Below, one piece after another: positions 35,935-60,725 of a DNA stretch of 64,000 bases. This stretch comes from a virus. Taxonomy: Duplodnaviria > Caudoviricetes. Positions within the stretch are counted from its first letter, which is position 1; the number at the start of each line of letters is the position of its first letter. The notes beneath the pieces are model-generated. The model did no database searches and was not told where the DNA came from. It worked only from the letters and a program-made list of their open reading frames with translations. The stretch is from IMG/VR virus record IMGVR_UViG_3300021400_000131, positions 12,648 through 76,647 of that record; one strand, given 5' to 3'. The translations under genes were made by a program, and so were the position numbers.

Positions 35935-36277
35935 TGAAGGCATCGAACTCGTCCTCCTCCTCTGGTGCCGTGGCGTTCTTGGCGAACGATGACACCTTCT
36001 TGGCGAGGTCACCCAGTCGACCGATGGCCTTCTGGTAAGCCTTGAACTCGGCACGCTCGACGCGCTCGATGTGGCGGTTGTTGACGGTGCCGACCTCCTT
36101 CTCCTCCATGACGCCCTTCTCCTGTATTACGAGACGCAGCGCCTCGGTCATGGATGCGAGCGCGTCATACTCAGTGAGGAGATCGTCTAGCAGCGCCTTG
36201 TCAAAGCCCGTGAGTCCGTCCGACTCTCGGTGCAGGCGGTCAAGGCGCGGCGTGTCGTACTTCTTCTTTGTTGCCAT
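35927..36277 (-). CDS. terS: Terminase small subunit
   Basis: Overlaps the terL start; helical P27-like, ends EEDEFDAF. Confidence 0.8.
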   Translation of the reverse strand: MATKKKYDTPRLDRLHRESDGLTGFDKALLDDLLTEYDALASMTEALRLVIQEKGVMEEKEVGTVNNRHIERVERAEFKAYQKAIGRLGDLAKKVSSFAKNATAPEEEDEFDAFNA

Positions 36278-36350
36278 ACCTCTCCTTGCGACAGAAGGAG
36301 CCATCCCTACGTTTCCGCAGGTAGGCGACTCACTCGGTTGTGGGTCGAAG

Positions 36351-36692
36351 CTAGAGGTGTGGCGTTTCCTTCCTGATGACGCGCCCATGCTCGTCGAACG
36401 CGACGCGCATTTCGGTAGTGCCGCTGTGGACGAATGCGTGGCAGTCTTGGCAAAGGCGCTGGAAGTTCTCGTATGCGAGCGTCACTGACGGGTCATCAAT
36501 GTTGTCGGGGTTGAGGTGTACCTTGTGGTGAACGACCTTGGCTGGCGTGAGTTTGCCCTGCTCAAAGCACCGTTCGCACATGCCAGGGGGAACGATGCCC
36601 CACGGTGTGTCAATGGGGCGCTCCATATATGCCTTGCGGTTGTGAAGCCATGCTGGTGAGTGGTAGAAGCTCGTTGCGAACTTTCGTGACAT
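36351..36692 (-). CDS. Packaging-associated HNH endonuclease (HK97 gp74-like)
   Basis: CERC...VVHHKVHL...NFQRLCQDCHAFVH next to terS. Confidence 0.88.
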   Translation of the reverse strand: MSRKFATSFYHSPAWLHNRKAYMERPIDTPWGIVPPGMCERCFEQGKLTPAKVVHHKVHLNPDNIDDPSVTLAYENFQRLCQDCHAFVHSGTTEMRVAFDEHGRVIRKETPHL

Positions 36693-36711
36693 ACTCCCCC
36701 GCCATTCCTAT

Positions 36712-36758
36712 GCACTATATCTTGTGGTTTTCTCAAGTTTGCAAACTATATATTGTGG
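36712..36758. promoter_or_regulatory. Tandem NrdR-box-like operators upstream of HNH-terS-terL
   Basis: gcaCTATATCTTGtgg (36712) and aaaCTATATATTGtgg (36743), 31 bp apart; each contains a TATAGT -10 candidate on the minus strand. Confidence 0.75.
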
Positions 36759-36804
36759 TTTCCCTAACTATCCTACACAGGAAAACGAGAAATTTCAAAC
36801 TATC

Positions 36805-36885
36805 ACGCGCACCAAAAATTGACTGGGGGCGCCGGTCCCACTGGAAAGTTGCATGATTTATGCACTATGGGGGCGGTTAACCGTT
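36805..36885. other. Putative cos (cohesive-end) region
   Basis: GC-rich GGGGGCGCCGGTCCC (36825-36839) in AT-rich DNA upstream of HNH/terS; resembles 3'-cos sites of HK97-like phages. Confidence 0.4.
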
Positions 36886-37000
36886 TTAGCTTGCACACAA
36901 ACTTTCATACCCTACCTTTTCGGTGGGAATATGTTCCACAATTCCTAGCGTTTCGGTAGGTTTTAGTCTTTATTCCTACTGTATCAGTAGGGTTTTATTG

Positions 37001-37160
37001 TTAGGTACCTTATTGTTAGGTACCTTACCTTTAGGTACCTGATTGTTAGGTACCTTTTGATTAAAAAGACAATCGCTAGGTACCTGATTGTTAGGTACCT
37101 AGTAGTTAGGTACCTACTGATAGCAAATTATTTGCTAGGTACCTAGCAGTTAGGTACCTA
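37001..37160. repeat. 15-bp-period array of palindromic YTAGGTACCT
   Basis: Copies at 37001, 37016, 37031, 37046, 37076, 37091, 37106, 37135, 37150. Confidence 0.95.
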
Positions 37161-37509
37161 GCAATTGCCAATTTTGGCATGATTTATTTTTATGCAATGA
37201 CCAATGCATTTCTATGCAGTATTTTCTGCGTTATTCAATAATTCGGGCAATATCACGGCATTTTATGCGCTGTTTTGCATTGATTTTGAATTATGTATCC
37301 AATTCCTCATATTTCAGTAAGTCTAGGCACTACTACCCCACATTTGCGTTGAATGGCCTTAAATCGCCTTAGAATGGCCTTAAACGCGATTGTGTACATA
37401 GTGTGTACGTTTGAGTTAGGTTGACATTTAAACCTAACCATGCTATTTATCGCGCGCGCACGCGTTACCTATCGTTATTGGGTCGATATACCGAACACTA
37501 TGTATGTTA

Positions 37510-37563
37510 TTACTCACACTGTGCATTAATACTCACATTGTGTAATATTACTCACACTGTGCA
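37510..37563. repeat. Three 19-bp-period repeats TACTCACAYTGTGYA
   Basis: Copies at 37511, 37530, 37549. Confidence 0.9.
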
Positions 37564-37769
37564 ATATCTTTTCCGATTCTATTTTTCGTGCCTCAAATGG
37601 CAATTGTGTAGGAATTGTGTAGATAATCTGACGTCTACAAAACAAGGTAAAGATTTAACCTTAGTTAACACCACATTCTACCTGCTTAAATGCGACTCGA
37701 TCGAACGTTTCCGCAGGTCAAAGTGCCTGTTTTGCGTTTCCGCTGGTAGATGCCTATATCTTGTACACA

Positions 37770-38225
37770 AATAAACGTCTGAGCTGGGAATTTGATTATG
37801 TGGCGTTCAATTCGTATCTTTATAGCCAGCGACGGGGACACCCCGACGGCGAACCTTAAAATCGGATACCTGATGCACCCACGGGTGTATCGACAGCATA
37901 GCCTAACAAGCTCCCTAGCCGTGGGATTCTGACAGTGACAGTGTTGGCGCTCAAACACGGATATAGCAGCCACAAGCCGCAATACGGCTATGTTGCAAGT
38001 AGGTGAAAAGCCTACGTCTAAAAACATTTACTATCTTGCAAATGTTGTTTAGGCAACATGGGTGAGCATACGCCACTAGTGTCTGGAATTGAGTACGGAT
38101 GCAAGCGTTGGAATTGAGTACGGCGCGATAGGTGTGTGCCGCCTGTGTCGTGGGCACAGGACATGGTTCTGTACCCACAGCACAGGTGAATTGTGCCTGT
38201 AGGAAACAATCGCTAGAGAGAGGAA
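37770..38225 (+). ncRNA. Candidate large structured leader or ncRNA
   Basis: Many hairpins with plus-strand G:U pairs; no credible ORF; leads into the RBS of the first early gene. Confidence 0.4.
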
Positions 38226-38231
38226 GCAATC

Positions 38232-39162
38232 ATGTCTAAAGCCTATCGTGTCACGTTCTTTGATAAGAACTACATTCGCCCCAACATTGAGCTGGTAGTC
38301 TATGCCACAGCTAAGTACCTCGCTGTGGATGCCGCTCGTGAACAGCTGCACGACATTGCCAGCCAGCGCATTGAGTACATTACCAATGGCATGGCTGGCA
38401 CTATGCGTGAGGTGACCAACCACAAGGGTGAGGTCCAGCGCTGCCGTGTGCTGGAAGTCTCCCCTGAGTATTACAACATCCTTGTGGATGAATGCTGGGG
38501 CATCGCTGAGGTCATGCAAATTGAGGGTGTCGCTAAGGGCGTCTCTTCTGAATCCACAGTCGCTAAGGCTGAGGAAGCCCTGCGCAAGAATCATGACAAC
38601 TGTGAACGTGAGAACGCGGGAGATTCATGTGTGACCCGTCGCAAGAAGCGCTGGACAAAAGCTCAAAAACGTGCCGCCAATGCCGCTCGTGAACAGGCCG
38701 CTAAGCTCTCTCTTGTCGCATAAGTTAGTCGATGGGCATACTGGTGGAACTACGCTACCAGTATGCCCATCGAAACCAGAACCATCTTCTCGTTGCGTGA
38801 ATTTGGCAAAGAGCAGAATCAATCACAATTCTGCTATTTGCTGGTATTCAGGCAACCAACAAGGTTAGGAGACAATTATGCTTAAAACCAGTGCCGCCAC
38901 GGACACTCTCGGTGTTGATGTGTCTTATGACGGGTGTGATTTCTTTATCACTCCTTATGACACAGACGTAATCGCTGTAATGTGCAAGCGTCATGGTGAG
39001 TGGGACTTCTATGACAGGAAGCCCTACAAGACCTTTGCAGAAGCCTGTGAAGCCATCTTCTACGGTACGATTCTCGTTGACCGCGCTGAGCGTGGGCACA
39101 TTAACATTGACATGTTCGGCAATTATACCGGGCTTACGCCCCTCACCTATTACGAGTCGTGA
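38232..39162 (+). other. Two hypothetical early genes (38232-38723, 38878-39162)
   Basis: Strong RBSs; separated by a 19-bp-stem hairpin at 38729-38773. Confidence 0.7.
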
Positions 39163-39210
39163 GAGGCTTCTAAGCTTGTATAATCCTTCTAGTCGATTGA
39201 AGGGAGGAAT

Positions 39211-39438
39211 ATGCGAGCTGACAAGGTACTACGTGAGATTATAAGCAAAGAAGGTCTGTCTGCTACCGAAGTTTCAAAACGAATCGGTAAAACTAGGCAA
39301 TACATGACTACTTTGTTCTCACATCATCGTATCCCACAAGCTGATACGATGGCGCGAATTTGTGACGTCGTGGGATACGATTTGCTGGTACGTTCTCGTG
39401 ATGATGGTTACGAAATAACTATCGACCCTCCCGAGTAG
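39211..39438 (+). CDS. Small XRE HTH regulator (moron-like)
   Basis: EGLSATEVSKRIGKTRQYMTTLF; own TATAAT (39179) and downstream terminator (~39465-39495). Confidence 0.75.
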   Translation: MRADKVLREIISKEGLSATEVSKRIGKTRQYMTTLFSHHRIPQADTMARICDVVGYDLLVRSRDDGYEITIDPPE

Positions 39439-39515
39439 ATCGCCCACAACAATTCTGTACCTAAAGCCCCTGGCCTAACGCTAGGGGCTTTTTCTATCTC
39501 AAGGAAGGAGTAGCC

Positions 39516-40634
39516 ATGTGCAGCTACACTAACGCCGAAATCCTCAATGAGCTTGAGGGCATGCATCGCCATGACGAGCTTGAAAGCAAGCTCGCAAATC
39601 TCATGGATGACTACTTTGCCATCGACGAGGAAGAGCGGGCGTATTACGCCCTCTCCGAGTGGTGGTGCGAGTTTGGGCACTACATGCCCGAGAACACCAC
39701 CATCAGTATCGAGTGGCGTGATTGGGGCAAAGAGCGTGAAGCTCTTGCGAAGCAAATTGACCAAGTGGAGAACGAGCTGGTGTTCTTCTAGGTCAAACGA
39801 TGCCGAGCCGGGCGGCTAATCCCGGCATGTGTTAGGGGCTGGACTCTGCAACGAGTCTGGCCCCTATTGCATAGGGCAAACAAACGAAGAAAGGAGTAGC
39901 CATGTGCAAGAACTACCGAATCCAGAATCAGGTTATCGAGGAAGCGAAGCAGGACACCCCCGAGGTGTACGCCCTCTTCGAGCAGGGGGACAACCTTGTA
40001 GGGCTGGTGAAGGTGCTTAATCGCACCCTCGCCATGTTCTACAACGTCCACAGGTACGGCGACACCGAGCTGTACGCCCACACGAGCACCGAGGGCGTGA
40101 GCTTCAAGCTCATCAAGCGTGTGTTCGGGGTCGATGACCCCATGCTGCGCGGCATGTACCGAGTCGTGCCCTGCTAGTGCTCTCCCCTTTTTTACCCTGC
40201 CATATCAAAAGTTGAACCAATAAACGAACCGAGCGGGTAGCTAGGTGACCGAGTGAAGGCCCTAGTCCGGCAGGTGTAGGTGAGGTTCAACTTTCTACGA
40301 GAAACGAGCCACAAATGCAGCAAATGTTTGAGTTTCTTCAAGTCCTGAACAGCCCTTGGATGCGTGAGTGCTTCCCACTGTGGGCTGCATTGTTCGTCAT
40401 AGTCGGGGTGTACATCAAGCATCACCCCGAACTCTAGTCACCAGTAACGAGCCAGAAGGCTCGAATCGAAAGGAGAACGTCATGTCCAAGTACGCCATCA
40501 ACAAGGTCGCAGACGAGCGCGGCATTGCCCGCAGCACCGCCATGCTCATCTGGGAAGCCACGCAGGACGTGGCCGAGTTCATCGCTGCTATCGAGGACTA
40601 CGCCGCGGGTCGCGGCTTCGTCCTCGCCTACTAG
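39516..40634 (+). other. Small hypothetical genes (39516-39791, 39902-40177, 40482-40634) and a possible 40-aa hydrophobic peptide (40315-40437)
   Basis: RBS AAGGAG before three ORFs; the peptide has a weak RBS. Confidence 0.6.
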
Positions 40635-41613: not shown

Positions 41614-42702
41614 ATGAACAACTTTATCTTTCTGGGTCACATTGAACCCGCGCCTACCCCCAAGTCCTTCTTCATCCCTGCGAAGAACTACAACAACGGC
41701 CATGGAATAACCGCTTGGGGCTGCAAGTGTCCCGAGTGTGGGGCTTACCACGAGTTCACCTTCGGCAACAGGTGGAACTTCTGCCCCGCATGTGGCTGTG
41801 ATGCCACCGAGAAGAAGTACGAGTGCCGGATTCAGTAAGGAGCGAACACCATGTCTTATAAGCGTTGGCAGAAGCGCAAGGCACCACGAGTTCACCGCTC
41901 GATGGTTGAATGCGAGCGCTTCGGCGATACCGTCTCATTCCGCAAGCTGCACAGCAACGACTGGGACTTTTGGTGGAAGGAAGAGTGGGACCACTCAATC
42001 AGGAATCGCTGCTGGAAGAACCAGCGCAAGACCAAGCACCAGTACAAGCGCACCGCCTACATCGACCTCTACGAGCCGTACCCGCACGACGAGTGCGGCC
42101 TTGTCATCACTGACGAGCAGATCGACCAGCTCTACGAGCTGTTTACCACCTACGACCTCGCCGCCTTCGGCGTCACCCTCTAGGAAAGGAGTACCACCGT
42201 GCAAACCAACCAGCAGCTTGACCCCATCACCCACCCCAAGCGCCGCCCGAGGATAACGCAGAACTGGAAGCACCGCACGAAGCGCTGCCACCAGTACCAC
42301 CGCACACCGAGCATTACGCTCCATCCTGGCTATGCGTGGATGGATAACGAGGGGACGTTCATTGTCCCCTTCGACGAGGAAATCACCTACTAGGAAGGAC
42401 GAGCCACCATGAGCAAGTACCACGGCATCATCGAGCACCCCTACGGGATGGACTACATCCAAGCCCGTGCGATGGTCAACAGCTACAACGAGCACGTCGA
42501 CGCCACCGACCGCTGCGCCGAGTGGGCGTACACCTCTGATAGTGCCTTCGACCAGCGTGTGTATGGCCGTCTCGCCGAGGAGTACATGGACATGAGCGGG
42601 CAGGAGCTTTGCACGCTCCTCCATTACGGGTGGGACTACGTGACCATCGATGATTGGGGTCACATCGCCCTGAAGAACGAGCAGATGGCACTTGCCGTCT
42701 AG
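41614..42702 (+). other. Small hypothetical genes (41614-41838 Zn-finger, 41851-42183, 42199-42393, 42409-42702)
   Basis: Tandem ORFs with AAGGAG/AGGAC RBSs. Confidence 0.7.
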
Positions 42703-42722
42703 AAGAGAGAGGAAAGCGAATC

Positions 42723-43388
42723 ATGGAATGGGTCACGAAATACACCGAGGTTCACCCCGATGCCGTCATGGTGACGGCACGAGCACTTGCCGCCGCTGGC
42801 ACCTTCACCGCCAAGGAGACGTACAAGTACGCCATTGGCGGCGTCCACATCAAGAGTGGTGCGGTCACGACCCTCACCGCCACCGACAGCTACAAGCTGG
42901 TGCAGGTGACGAGCCGCAGGGCGTCCGGCCACACCAACCCCAACGACGAGTTTGTGCTTGACTGGCAAGGATTGAAGGCCACGAAGATGCTCACGCCACG
43001 ACCGAAGGCGAGCATGTGGGTGGCTATTCACCGCTCACCTGCCAACAACGACCTGAACCTCGTGTTCCTAGAGGAGAAGGGCGAGGGCCAATACACCGAG
43101 CGCGGCAGGGCCACGGTGAAGGCGCTGGATGCCAACTTCCCGAGCGTCGAGCCGCTGTTCAAGGGCAAGGCTGAGTACGCAAAGGGTGAGCAGTCCAACG
43201 CTGGCCCCTACCTCAACACCAGCTACCTCATCGACCTGTTCAAGGCTATCGAGTTGGCGGTGAGCGCCGATGGCGCAGCCGCAACGAGCTTCATCCACGG
43301 TCCCAACTGGAACCAGCCCATGTTCTTCGAGGCCGAGAACAAGAGTGGTGAGGCCGTCACCGCCATCTGCATGCCCATCCGTCACTAG
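42723..43388 (+). CDS. Truncated DNA polymerase III beta-clamp-like protein (domains II-III)
   Basis: GGVHI...LTATDSYKL, DANFPSVEPLF, YLNTSYLIDLF, QPMFF...ICMPIR match DnaN domain II/III motifs. Confidence 0.75.
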   Translation: MEWVTKYTEVHPDAVMVTARALAAAGTFTAKETYKYAIGGVHIKSGAVTTLTATDSYKLVQVTSRRASGHTNPNDEFVLDWQGLKATKMLTPRPKASMWVAIHRSPANNDLNLVFLEEKGEGQYTERGRATVKALDANFPSVEPLFKGKAEYAKGEQSNAGPYLNTSYLIDLFKAIELAVSADGAAATSFIHGPNWNQPMFFEAENKSGEAVTAICMPIRH

Positions 43389-43406
43389 CAGAGAGGACAA
43401 CGAAAA

Positions 43407-43508
43407 ATGAACGTCACTCGCAGGGGATTCATCAAGCTCTTCGCAATCGGGTTCGTCAGCGCACTGGCTGGCGAGCTTGACGCATCCGACGATGACGGTG
43501 GTGGCTAG
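43407..43508 (+). CDS. 33-aa twin-arginine (Tat) signal microprotein
   Basis: MNVTRRGFIKLFAIGFVSALAGELDASDDDGGG*; RBS AGAGAGGACAACGAA. Confidence 0.7.
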   Translation: MNVTRRGFIKLFAIGFVSALAGELDASDDDGGG

Positions 43509-43555
43509 CTGGCTCCACCGCACCGCAATGACCAACGAGAGAAAGGACAACGAAA

Positions 43556-44685
43556 GTGGGCTACTACAGCGACATTCGATTCAACACCACCGCAGCGGGC
43601 TACAAGGAGTTCCTTGCAGCCCTGCCCGACGAGTTCAAGGACCCCACCAAGTGGGGCCTCTTCGACAAGCATGGCAACCCCGAGGTGTTCGAGGAGTACG
43701 ACGGCGGCGTGATGTTCGGGTGGGATGGCGTCAAGTGGTACACCGATTGGGGCACCTACCTCTACGGCAACAACCCCTTCGCCGACGTGCAGGCCGTGAT
43801 GGCGGCTTTCAACGAGGTGTTGGACAACGGCGTGCCCATCGAGTACATCCGCGTCGGAGAGGAAACGGGTGACATCGAATACGGTGGCGACATCCACTAC
43901 GCCAGCACCGAAGGGCCTACCTGCTACCTTGGCACGTCCACGACAATCGAGCTGTACTAGGAGGGAGCAAGCATGAGAGTCAAGCCAATCGAAGAGTTTG
44001 ACTACGAGGGCCAGCACTACAAGTACGTGACCTTCGAGTTCAACACGCCGTCGACCCACGAGGCCACGGTGTGGCTGGACGAGGACAACGAGCCAACGGG
44101 CGGCGAGGAGATCGCCTACGGTTCGTGGAACACGTTCGACAAGCAGGAAGTCGGCGAGTACCTGCACCACTACGGCATCGACTTCGGCGAGGTGCTGCAA
44201 CGAGCGGTTGCAGCATAGCACCGACAACGAACCACGGAACCAAGCGGCCATCCACAAGGGGTGGCCGCAACTCATTAGAGAGGAAGCACGACATGCTCAA
44301 CGAGTACACCCGCACCTACATCGTCAACGGCGACTTCAACAACAGCGGCGTCAACCGCATCGACGTGAGCATCGACTACCGAAAGGGCGGCATGAGCTAC
44401 TGGGACGGCGGGATGCGCCCCCGTGGCTACTACTTCAGCATCAGCCCCTACAAGCTGGTCGACCACGGCTACTGCACGAGCCGCGAGGTGATGATTGGCG
44501 TCCACGGCAGCGGCTCCGCCGACTGCATCCTACCCTGCGAGCGCCAGTCCAAGAAGCGCTTCGAGACGGCGTGCGGCATGGTGGACGAACTCACCGACAA
44601 AATCCTGCCTGCCTTCCTTGCCAAGCACGGCATCGAGCTTGAGAGCAACGAGTACACCGAGAAGTGGGACGAGCGCCGGGTCTAG
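43556..44685 (+). other. Hypothetical acidic/aromatic genes (43556-43960, 43973-44218, 44293-44685)
   Basis: Strong RBSs, high GC3. Confidence 0.75.
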
Positions 44686-44757
44686 TGGCGAACGGCCACC
44701 TGTGAGGACTCACAAGGACGAGAGACACATCAGGGAACAAGAGAGAGGACAACGAAA

Positions 44758-58850: not shown

Positions 58851-59644
58851 CGTCCCATCTCCTTGAGGTGCGCGATGCCGATGTGCTCCCACTGCTCTAT
58901 GGATGCGTCCATCGTCCTAGACAGGAGCGCCACCTGCTCGCCACGGCGCATACCGCTGAGCGATTCGACGTGGCGGACCTCCGAGAGGTCGCGTGCGATG
59001 GAGTTCCACGACTCCGCCTGTAGGTAGTAGCGCGTGACCATCTCCACGGTGAGGTCATCGGCTATCTTCGCCATCCCGTGAACGACGTCCCACGCCTCGT
59101 CAAGCGGCTCCTGAAGCTCAGCGACGTCCACAAGCTCATGCTGGGCGTCAAGCATCTCGTCCACCTTGCGCATGGGGTCAAGGATGCCGTGCTTGGAGTG
59201 CGGGCCAACGTTGTAGCCCTGCGGGCCGATGGCCTGCTTCTTCAGCTCCAAGTCCTCCTCGATGTGCCGTATTTGCAGCGCTGCGTCGCGCGCCGCGTCA
59301 AGAACCTCGCGTACCGTCAACTCTCCCCCATCCCTACGCGCCCTCGGGTGGCTGGTGAGGTGCCAGCCACCGCAGTACGGGCATTTGTAGACATAAAGGG
59401 GACTCTTGGAGTAGTGCCTTTCGATGTATTTGAGGGCTGATTGGCGGTTCTTGAAGCGCGACTTCCTGCCGCACGCGGAGTGACCTTCGTTAGCGTAGCA
59501 TTCCGTGACCCTCTTGTCACGCCGCTCGCGCTCGCGCTTGCGCTTGCGGTTTACTTTCTTCATTTTTGCCAGACGTCGCTCGGTCTTTGCGGGAAGGTAG
59601 CGCTTGTCCTCGTGCCACCTGCTGCCGTGCTTCGCCTTCGACAT
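58847..59644 (-). CDS. Zn-finger fused to RinA/ArpU-like transcriptional activator
   Basis: CGRKSRF...YKCPYCGGWHLTSH, then helical domain ending VTRYYLQAESWNSIA. Confidence 0.55.
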   Translation of the reverse strand: MSKAKHGSRWHEDKRYLPAKTERRLAKMKKVNRKRKRERERRDKRVTECYANEGHSACGRKSRFKNRQSALKYIERHYSKSPLYVYKCPYCGGWHLTSHPRARRDGGELTVREVLDAARDAALQIRHIEEDLELKKQAIGPQGYNVGPHSKHGILDPMRKVDEMLDAQHELVDVAELQEPLDEAWDVVHGMAKIADDLTVEMVTRYYLQAESWNSIARDLSEVRHVESLSGMRRGEQVALLSRTMDASIEQWEHIGIAHLKEMGR

Positions 59645-60165
59645 TATTTTCCCGTACTGCCAAGCCCGCTGTCTCCGCGCTCGCCGCCCGAAATCTCATC
59701 GACCTCGACGTAGGTGGGGTAGGCCACTGGCATAACGACGAGCTGCGTCACCTTGTCACCGGCCTTGAACTCCTTTGGGTAGTCGCCGTGGTTGTAGACG
59801 CGAAGGCGGATTGAGCCAGTGTAGCCCTCGTCGATGACACCCTCGACGTTGATGCACGCCTTGATGTTGAGGCCGGACTTGCTCTTGACCATGCCGACCG
59901 TGCCGCGAGGGAGCTGCACGTGCACGCCTGTGTCGATGTCCACGGAGCTGTGCGCTGGCACAGTGAAGCCCTCCATGCAGCAAAGGTCAGCGCCCGCATC
60001 CGTCGCGTGCGCACGGACGGGAAGCTTTGCGCCTTCGTCAAGGGTGACGCTCACGGTGGGGAGCCACGGCGATGGCGGCTCGGCCCGCGCTGGCTGAATG
60101 ATGTTGATGCAGCGCCAAACGACGCCCTCGACGTACTCCTCGAACTTCTCCTTCAGCTTGCCCAT
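59644..60165 (-). CDS. dut: Trimeric dUTPase
   Basis: AGADL, DTG, KSKSGL, GVIDEGYTG, VTQLV, ERGDSGLGSTG motifs. Confidence 0.95.
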   Translation of the reverse strand: MGKLKEKFEEYVEGVVWRCINIIQPARAEPPSPWLPTVSVTLDEGAKLPVRAHATDAGADLCCMEGFTVPAHSSVDIDTGVHVQLPRGTVGMVKSKSGLNIKACINVEGVIDEGYTGSIRLRVYNHGDYPKEFKAGDKVTQLVVMPVAYPTYVEVDEISGGERGDSGLGSTGK

Positions 60166-60170
60166 GTTGG

Positions 60171-60725
60171 CTACTCCTTTCCAACACCCGTGATGCGCTC
60201 GTGCAGCCCGCACGGCACGAACTCGTTGCAACCGCCGTGGATGACGCACTTGGGCTGCATGAGGTCTGCGAACTCGGGGTTCGCCTGAACGACGGCATCG
60301 CGTATCTTGGTCATGACCATGCGCGTCTCGACAGACGCCTGACCGCAGAGCCGCATTCGTGCCATCTGCATGAGTTCCTGCGCGTTGATGTCCATGACGT
60401 GCGTGACAAAGGCCCCTTGCGGGGCCTCGTTGCGGTCGTACTTGTCTTGTCGGTCGTTGCGCTGCGACGAGACGTAGTGCTCGACGCCGAACTTGTGGCG
60501 GCAGAAATGCACACTCACCCAGTAGGGAACCTCCATGCGAATGGTGAACATCAGCGTGCGGATGGGCGAGTGCTCGCACCGAAGCATCCTGCGCTTCCAC
60601 TCGTCGGTCACCTCGCTGCCCGCATACCGCTTGCCTATGGTGTTGAGTGCCAGCAGCTTGCAGCGCTTCCAATCATCCTCTGTCGGGTGCCGCAGCAGCT
60701 CGACCCTAATTCCGTCGCTACTCAT
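60171..60725 (-). CDS. thyX: FAD-dependent thymidylate synthase (short phage ThyX)
   Basis: EHSPI, VSVHFCRH, VSSQRND, NAQEL...RLCGQAS motifs. Confidence 0.8.
   Translation of the reverse strand: MSSDGIRVELLRHPTEDDWKRCKLLALNTIGKRYAGSEVTDEWKRRMLRCEHSPIRTLMFTIRMEVPYWVSVHFCRHKFGVEHYVSSQRNDRQDKYDRNEAPQGAFVTHVMDINAQELMQMARMRLCGQASVETRMVMTKIRDAVVQANPEFADLMQPKCVIHGGCNEFVPCGLHERITGVGKE

Follow-up and report, generated by a model that had tools for sequence, protein, structure and literature searches.

We analysed a window of 64,000 nucleotides that spans bases 12648-76647 of a 76,647-bp IMG/VR record of an uncultured phage. The record carries direct terminal repeats and its completeness is rated 100%. 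On the plus strand of this window, positions 43407-43508 contain a reading frame of 33 codons that starts with ATG, ends with TAG and encodes a protein of 33 residues (P0006), hereafter called the micro-gene. The locus had been singled out from the DNA letters in an original prediction of a microprotein that is essentially only a Tat signal peptide. The translation of the frame and the features listed there were correct. The start had been placed at 43390; the ribosome-binding region indeed begins there, but this part is not coding and the ATG itself lies at 43407.

A conserved early ribosome-binding site had also been claimed, and this could be verified. A purine-rich Shine-Dalgarno site can be read directly at 43391-43397 (plus strand), about 10 bases before the ATG, together with a 12-base translation-initiation motif at 43394-43405 (plus strand) that is common to neighbouring genes. 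The window contains exactly three exact copies of this motif (the other two at 43544-43555 and 44746-44757), and in each case only 0-1 base separates the motif from a start codon. When up to two mismatches were allowed, 18 matches were obtained against 3.5 expected, a five-fold excess, and none of 100 shuffles reached 18. Since the motif precedes all three starts, the micro-ORF shares its initiation signal with accepted genes nearby. The motif looks like a phage-specific extended translation-initiation signal. The identical stretch of 12 bases sits within a longer purine-rich context, and closely similar stretches are found ahead of further plus-strand genes in the interval from 44 to 56 kb. 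An RNA element at the locus was considered as well and rejected, given an unremarkable local RNA fold (z-score -0.76) and no terminator or promoter-like site at this position.

The window is organized in two modules. Large terminase, portal protein, capsid protein and a 2208-aa tape-measure-like protein are encoded on the minus strand, and many small plus-strand genes form a long array between approximately 40 and 58 kb, which starts after a strong terminator at 39463-39491. A stretch of low GC content (36000-40000; 0.48-0.50 compared to about 0.60 elsewhere) separates the minus-strand structural module from the plus-strand early module. It has the terminator at its end and is probably a regulatory or divergent-promoter region. 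The micro-gene is an accessory early gene of this phage. Neither an integrase nor a resolvase gene was found in the complete genome and the phage is probably virulent. A TatA gene was likewise not found in the phage genome. On the minus strand, positions 59644-60672 encode a 342-aa protein whose dUTPase domain is confined to the C-terminal 130 residues; no family was found for its N-terminal part of about 200 residues.

Directly upstream of the micro-gene, a gene at 42654-43388 (plus strand; 221-244 aa) matches phrog_3007 (‘RusA-like resolvase’, E 1.5e-10) and no Pfam family. A 32%-identical homologue is encoded on the metagenomic contig L006, two genes upstream of the micro-gene found there. 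Downstream, positions 43556-43960 (plus strand) encode a protein of 134 aa that adjoins the micro-gene in three lineages. Homologues of this gene are present on four other contigs. The protein matched no Pfam or PHROG family, and its AlphaFold model (mean pLDDT 55.5) was too poor for a fold search. In IMG/VR the 134-aa family was recovered at one distant locus that lacks a micro-gene, and the JGI metagenomes contained nothing.

Distant homologues of the 134-aa protein (26-34% identity) were found among 185,579 species genomes, mainly in Eggerthellaceae and in some Bacilli MAGs. Because these relatives lie mostly in Eggerthellaceae (Adlercreutzia, Parvibacter), the phage likely infects a high-GC Gram-positive gut bacterium of this family, and a host among the Coriobacteriia is plausible on the same gene comparison. 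The large terminase was uninformative as a guide to the host, with at most about 40% identity to Firmicutes phages and Coriobacteriia prophages alike. Searches of cultured-phage records gave no match, either by blastn with the DNA of the region or by tblastn with the peptide. Labels in ENA of the contigs on which further members of the micro-gene family are found (L006-L015; XIEF21, WILK20, TONG22) resemble those of what we take to be ruminant gut metagenome studies. If we read these labels rightly, the family presumably belongs to phages of the rumen or ruminant gut.

According to the original prediction, the microprotein is made up of a signal-peptide-like segment and a short acidic tail and of nothing else. 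We found this composition in all six variants, the ORF of the window included, and the predicted elements (T-R-R-x-F-I-K, a hydrophobic core, A-x-A and a 12-aa acidic peptide) were all present. The n-region comprises residues 1-10 (43407-43436, plus strand), with the twin-arginine motif T-R-R-x-F-I-K at residues 4-10. It is followed by the h-region at residues 11-18 (43437-43460, plus strand), where an uncharged run begins that reaches residue 22 and thus covers 12 residues (11-22). The c-region at residues 19-21 (43461-43469, plus strand) has the A-x-A sequence A-L-A, a candidate type I signal peptidase site at which the peptide may be cut. Residues 22-33 (43470-43505, plus strand) form the acidic tail, which has a net charge of -5.

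We searched exhaustively for relatives of the microprotein with phmmer among 1.84 billion cluster representatives. This yielded four matches at E<=0.001, with lengths of 31, 32, 32 and 34 aa, and none longer. A fifth relative was found on a related contig (L005), so that six distinct versions are available, all between 31 and 34 aa long. All five variants other than the one in the window have a strong purine-rich Shine-Dalgarno site 5-10 bases upstream of the ATG. The microprotein showed no similarity to the capsid protein of its phage. Degenerate DNA patterns for the conserved core gave 0 matches in IMG/VR and the JGI metagenomes, and the family is rare, with six variants on about 15 contigs.

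An alignment of the six variants (A1) revealed invariant residues at R5, R6, F8, L11, A19, A21, G22, E23, D29 and G32. The consensus of the n-region is (S/T)-R-R-x-F-[ILC]-[KRG]-L, with serine or threonine before the arginines in all six. At the later basic position K, R and G all occur, and R5 and R6 are never replaced by K. In four of the variants the uncharged run has 12 residues and in the other two 16, with a mean Kyte-Doolittle value of 2.1-2.4; the best 19-residue window reaches 1.34-1.87 across the family. Net charge changes from +2 to +3 before the core to -5 to -8 after it. The tail has 11-14 residues in all variants; its composition is conserved more than its order, and the last residues vary. 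The signal part is conserved to the same degree as the tail.

At the codon level, pairwise dN/dS between the six variants ranges from 0.10 to 0.47, with dS from about 0.8 to saturation. Four different codon pairs specify the two arginines, and one serine persists despite a switch between TCC and AGC codons. As judged from these comparisons, the micro-ORF is shown to be a genuine gene of constant length that is under purifying selection for its protein. It is also a clean case in which comparative genomics validates a microprotein of about 30 aa.

It had been foreseen that the frame might turn out to be a remnant, with long proteins as its homologues. All detectable homologues have 31-34 aa, and this expectation was contradicted. 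The N-terminal 20 positions do resemble the leaders of long host enzymes, as one would expect from a truncated Tat-exported protein. However, the significant homologues are uniformly short, conservation extends to the position of the stop, the tail and the translation signals, and purifying selection acts on the protein. We therefore rejected a truncated remnant as well as a chance frame; both are hardly tenable in view of the uniform length, the conserved signals and the dN/dS values.

The family members are encoded in co-directional, operon-like arrays of small, phage-like genes on metagenomic contigs, and several of them overlap a neighbouring gene by 4 bases. Among the contigs with a homologue of the 134-aa gene, L002 (89% identical) carries an identical micro-ORF at the same place. 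On a 64% identical contig (L005) a diverged homologue of 33 codons, equipped with its own Shine-Dalgarno site and overlapping the start of the next gene, flanks the 134-aa gene on its opposite side. Two contigs with 80% identity (L003 and L004) have no micro-gene within the region examined. Among related phages, the micro-gene is hence placed on either side of the 134-aa neighbour or is absent, and no gene was found to co-occur with it in all family loci.

On two contigs (L006:1714-1824 and L013:2728-2832) a gene for a hydrophobic mini-protein of 34-36 codons overlaps the micro-gene by 4 bases, and the two genes may constitute a small membrane-protein module. Such an arrangement, along with the small size of the microprotein and its layout of a hydrophobic stretch and a charged tail, would fit a mini-peptide that damages the membrane independently of any export machinery, in the manner of type I toxins or holin accessory proteins. 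We consider this very unlikely. The hydrophobic run has only 12 residues in most members, no promoter-like signal hints at an antisense RNA, the RNA fold is not exceptional, and the micro-gene resides in the early/replication region away from the lysis genes. Furthermore, a membrane-damaging role leaves the conserved Tat motif unexplained.

Tat signals have the consensus motif S-R-R-x-F-L-K and an h-region for which a minimum of 12 residues is stated (PMC7317946). Both features are found in the family, which has an S/T-R-R-x-F-L-K-like motif in the n-region and an h-region with 12 or more uncharged residues that is followed by A-x-A. Sec signals, by comparison, do not tell lysine from arginine (PMC7317946). 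Because the arginine pair is never replaced by lysine while the later basic site varies between K, R and G, an arginine-specific recognition is indicated. The alignment thus supports the twin-arginine motif as a selected feature.

We further searched with the family profile, and its positions 1-20 matched the N-termini of large ORFs in five Eggerthellaceae genomes. Beyond the family itself, the matches of this profile were confined to N-termini of large ORFs in Eggerthellaceae genomes. The ORFs recovered were confirmed as molybdopterin oxidoreductases, a FAD flavoprotein, a 4Fe-4S subunit, the small subunit of a NiFe hydrogenase and a 5'-nucleotidase, all of them classical Tat cargo. At the level of the profile comparison, the similarity of the family to host Tat leaders appears specific. 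Eggerthellaceae genomes used as stand-ins for the host encode TatC and contain 9-36 molybdoenzyme Fe4S4 domains per genome. A specific host gene as donor of the micro-gene was considered and rejected; the best host match, the leader of the 5'-nucleotidase, resembles the micro-gene only in generic signal features.

Curated models gave a weaker result. The family retrieved only TIGR01409 and, for one member, TIGR02811, and did not match PF10518. TIGR01409 matched three of the six members at E<=10 and reached 15.7 bits, just below its cut-off of 16.7. In a six-frame search of the 76.6-kb genome with this model, the n-region of the micro-ORF was the single match (14 bits). With an independent HMM trained on 23 host molybdoenzyme leaders, the family ranked at the top of 1709 phage six-frame negatives, but by a margin of about 1.5 bits or less (10.1 and 8.1-8.5 bits, compared to 8.6 for the best negative); this model has low power, and genuine host leaders of other enzyme families score equally low. 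Look-alikes in the ESM Atlas were short clusters with PF10518 (score 0.85), which we regard as a lead only.

The core of the microprotein is also shorter (12 compared to 14-22 residues) and more hydrophobic (Kyte-Doolittle 2.1-2.4 compared to 1.1-1.7) than that of six host Tat leaders. A basic Sec-avoidance residue is absent from the c-region, and no basic residue follows the core. A less hydrophobic h-region and a basic c-region residue, both of which the family lacks, are tendencies of Tat signals and not requirements (PMC7317946). The original assignment as a Tat signal peptide is partly supported, by the selected motif and the architecture, but the curated cut-offs are narrowly missed and the core looks more Sec-like.

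These properties raise the possibility of a small peptide of the Sec/YidC type that is exported or inserted without Tat and whose arginines serve another arginine-specific contact. The basic N-terminus, the short and strongly hydrophobic core and the acidic tail obey the positive-inside rule, with charges of +3 on the N-terminal side and -5 to -8 on the C-terminal side. The differences in the core from host Tat leaders, the missing Sec-avoidance residue and the failure to pass curated Tat models are in line with this reading, and in many cases Tat and Sec signals can replace one another in function (PMC7317946). However, it does not account for an invariant arginine pair with F at +2 and S/T at -1 in all six variants while the other basic site swaps between K, R and G, nor for a profile that retrieves classical Tat substrates and no other secreted proteins. 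From helix geometry, moreover, an uncharged core of 12 residues would be too short to form a stable membrane-spanning helix. We regard a Tat-independent route as the main rival, though a doubtful one.

Among known entities, a Tat signal peptide appears to be closest to the micro-gene family by motif and architecture, and the members of the family are well supported as genes by their comparison. Tat signal peptides represented by TIGR01409 and PF10518, such as the leaders of molybdopterin oxidoreductases or NiFe hydrogenase small subunits, share the motif, an h-region of at least 12 residues and A-x-A. In contrast to these, the micro-peptide is phage-encoded and has no cargo domain but 11-14 acidic residues in its place. 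Its core is shorter and more hydrophobic, a Sec-avoidance residue is missing and it falls just under the curated cut-offs. In the literature surveyed, including the review PMC13673990, we found no description of a stand-alone Tat signal encoded by a phage.

The reading that we prefer, with a probability of about one half, is that the micro-gene encodes a stand-alone Tat-type signal that is handled post-translationally by the host translocase, so that its acidic tail comes to lie outside and is probably cleaved off after A-x-A. A peptide of this size would be too short for co-translational targeting and would leave the ribosome first. The host TatBC receptor could then bind the arginine pair post-translationally, and the peptide would insert as a signal-peptide hairpin with the acidic tail as the second arm. 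In known substrates the c-region together with early mature residues makes up this second arm (PMC7317946). As the membrane potential favours negative charge on the outer face, the tail would be drawn to that side of the membrane, and type I signal peptidase could cut after A-x-A. After cleavage, a signal fragment of about 20 residues would stay in the membrane or at the receptor, and about 12 residues would be left outside as a polyanionic peptide. Recognition of the micro-peptide by Tat, its topology and its cleavage are inferred. Small unstructured hydrophilic cargo is tolerated by Tat, according to a passage of PMC13673990 that cites Richter 2007.

What such a signal would do for the phage can be approached from its conservation. 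Given that signal part and tail are equally conserved, we favour over a diffusible signal an effect that is exerted at the membrane or on the translocase, for example by occupying or triggering the Tat receptor or by excluding other phages. One form of this is a peptide that occupies TatBC or signal-binding chaperones and blocks or futilely activates the translocase, thereby stopping the export of host respiratory enzymes. Equal conservation of signal and tail is unusual for a mere address, and the micro-gene lies within an early operon. Candidate hosts, with 9-36 molybdoenzyme Fe4S4 domains or leaders per genome, depend heavily on Tat. In addition, binding of a signal peptide alone triggers assembly of the translocase, and the early mature region provides the hairpin's second arm (PMC7317946). 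On the other hand, an acidic tail should ease passage and not jam it, and the invariant A-x-A points to normal processing. The micro-gene also seems dispensable, as it is missing from the region examined in a related phage. Taken together, we judge a decoy or trigger of this kind to be rather unlikely. The same holds for the more specific idea that occupied TatBC, or TatA assembly triggered without cargo, switches off or short-circuits the export of respiratory reductases early in infection, which we put forward with considerable reserve. If true, a peptide acting on the translocase would be the Tat pathway's first natural peptide effector.

A diffusible signal had also been proposed, namely an arbitrium-like communication precursor that is exported and processed to an acidic peptide sensed by later infections. 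Arbitrium AimP and Phr propeptides are likewise short (about 40 aa) and combine an N-terminal export signal with a short C-terminal peptide, and AimP is encoded by phages. The combination of a signal and a short propeptide on a mobile element is matched by the micro-gene, and the last residues of its tail differ between variants. AimP and Phr, however, have Sec-type signals, adjoin a TPR receptor and occur in temperate phages, and none of these three traits was found for the micro-gene. The prediction had already remarked that no obvious TPR receptor gene was visible, and we found no TPR or receptor-like gene among ten neighbours. A search of 401 Coriobacteriia genomes recovered no family member, the sole match being one host Tat leader, and hence gives no sign of lysogeny. 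Furthermore, we know of no imported signal that is polyanionic like this peptide. Because neither an integrase nor a resolvase was found in the complete genome, no receptor-like gene among the ten neighbours, no partner gene common to all family loci and no member in the 401 Coriobacteriia genomes searched, an arbitrium-like role is very unlikely.

Enterococcal pheromone plasmids provide another likeness of kind only. Their inhibitor precursors (prgQ/iCF10) are also micro-ORFs on mobile elements that resemble signal peptides and are processed at the membrane (PMC7117660). These precursors are processed by Sec/Eep, and their active part is the hydrophobic C-terminal end, which is sensed by an adjacent RRNPP regulator. 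The micro-peptide differs by its twin-arginine motif and its polyanionic C-terminus, and no PrgX-type regulator was found among its neighbours.

A further comparison concerns TIGR02811 (‘formate dehydrogenase region TAT target’), whose members are likewise very small proteins that consist largely of a Tat leader. They have about 60-70 aa and a conserved C-terminal motif and are encoded beside formate dehydrogenase genes. Only one of our six family members matched this model (E 0.0025), and its neighbours are phage early genes with no formate dehydrogenase setting. With 31-34 aa, an acidic tail and a location in a phage early operon, the micro-gene family is an analogue of TIGR02811 in kind and no relative.

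Tat signals are known as addresses on folded cargo, and here a selected viral gene would encode the address almost alone. If our preferred reading of a stand-alone Tat-type signal is correct, either the signal itself is the effector, competing for the translocase or triggering it, or Tat serves phages as a route by which very short acidic peptides reach the cell surface. In either case mechanistic studies would gain a natural minimal Tat substrate with 19-21 signal residues. The micro-peptide would also offer a handle on the manipulation of the respiratory metabolism of gut Coriobacteriia by phages. The drug- and diet-transforming reductases of these bacteria are largely exported by Tat. Among the stand-in hosts, Parvibacter caecicola (G004; 2.5 Mb) had 36 matches to molybdopterin-oxidoreductase Fe4S4 domains, almost all of which fall in ORFs that are 735-1156 aa long and have twin-arginine leaders. 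Judged by these leaders, its Tat-dependent reductase repertoire is very large for the size of its genome.
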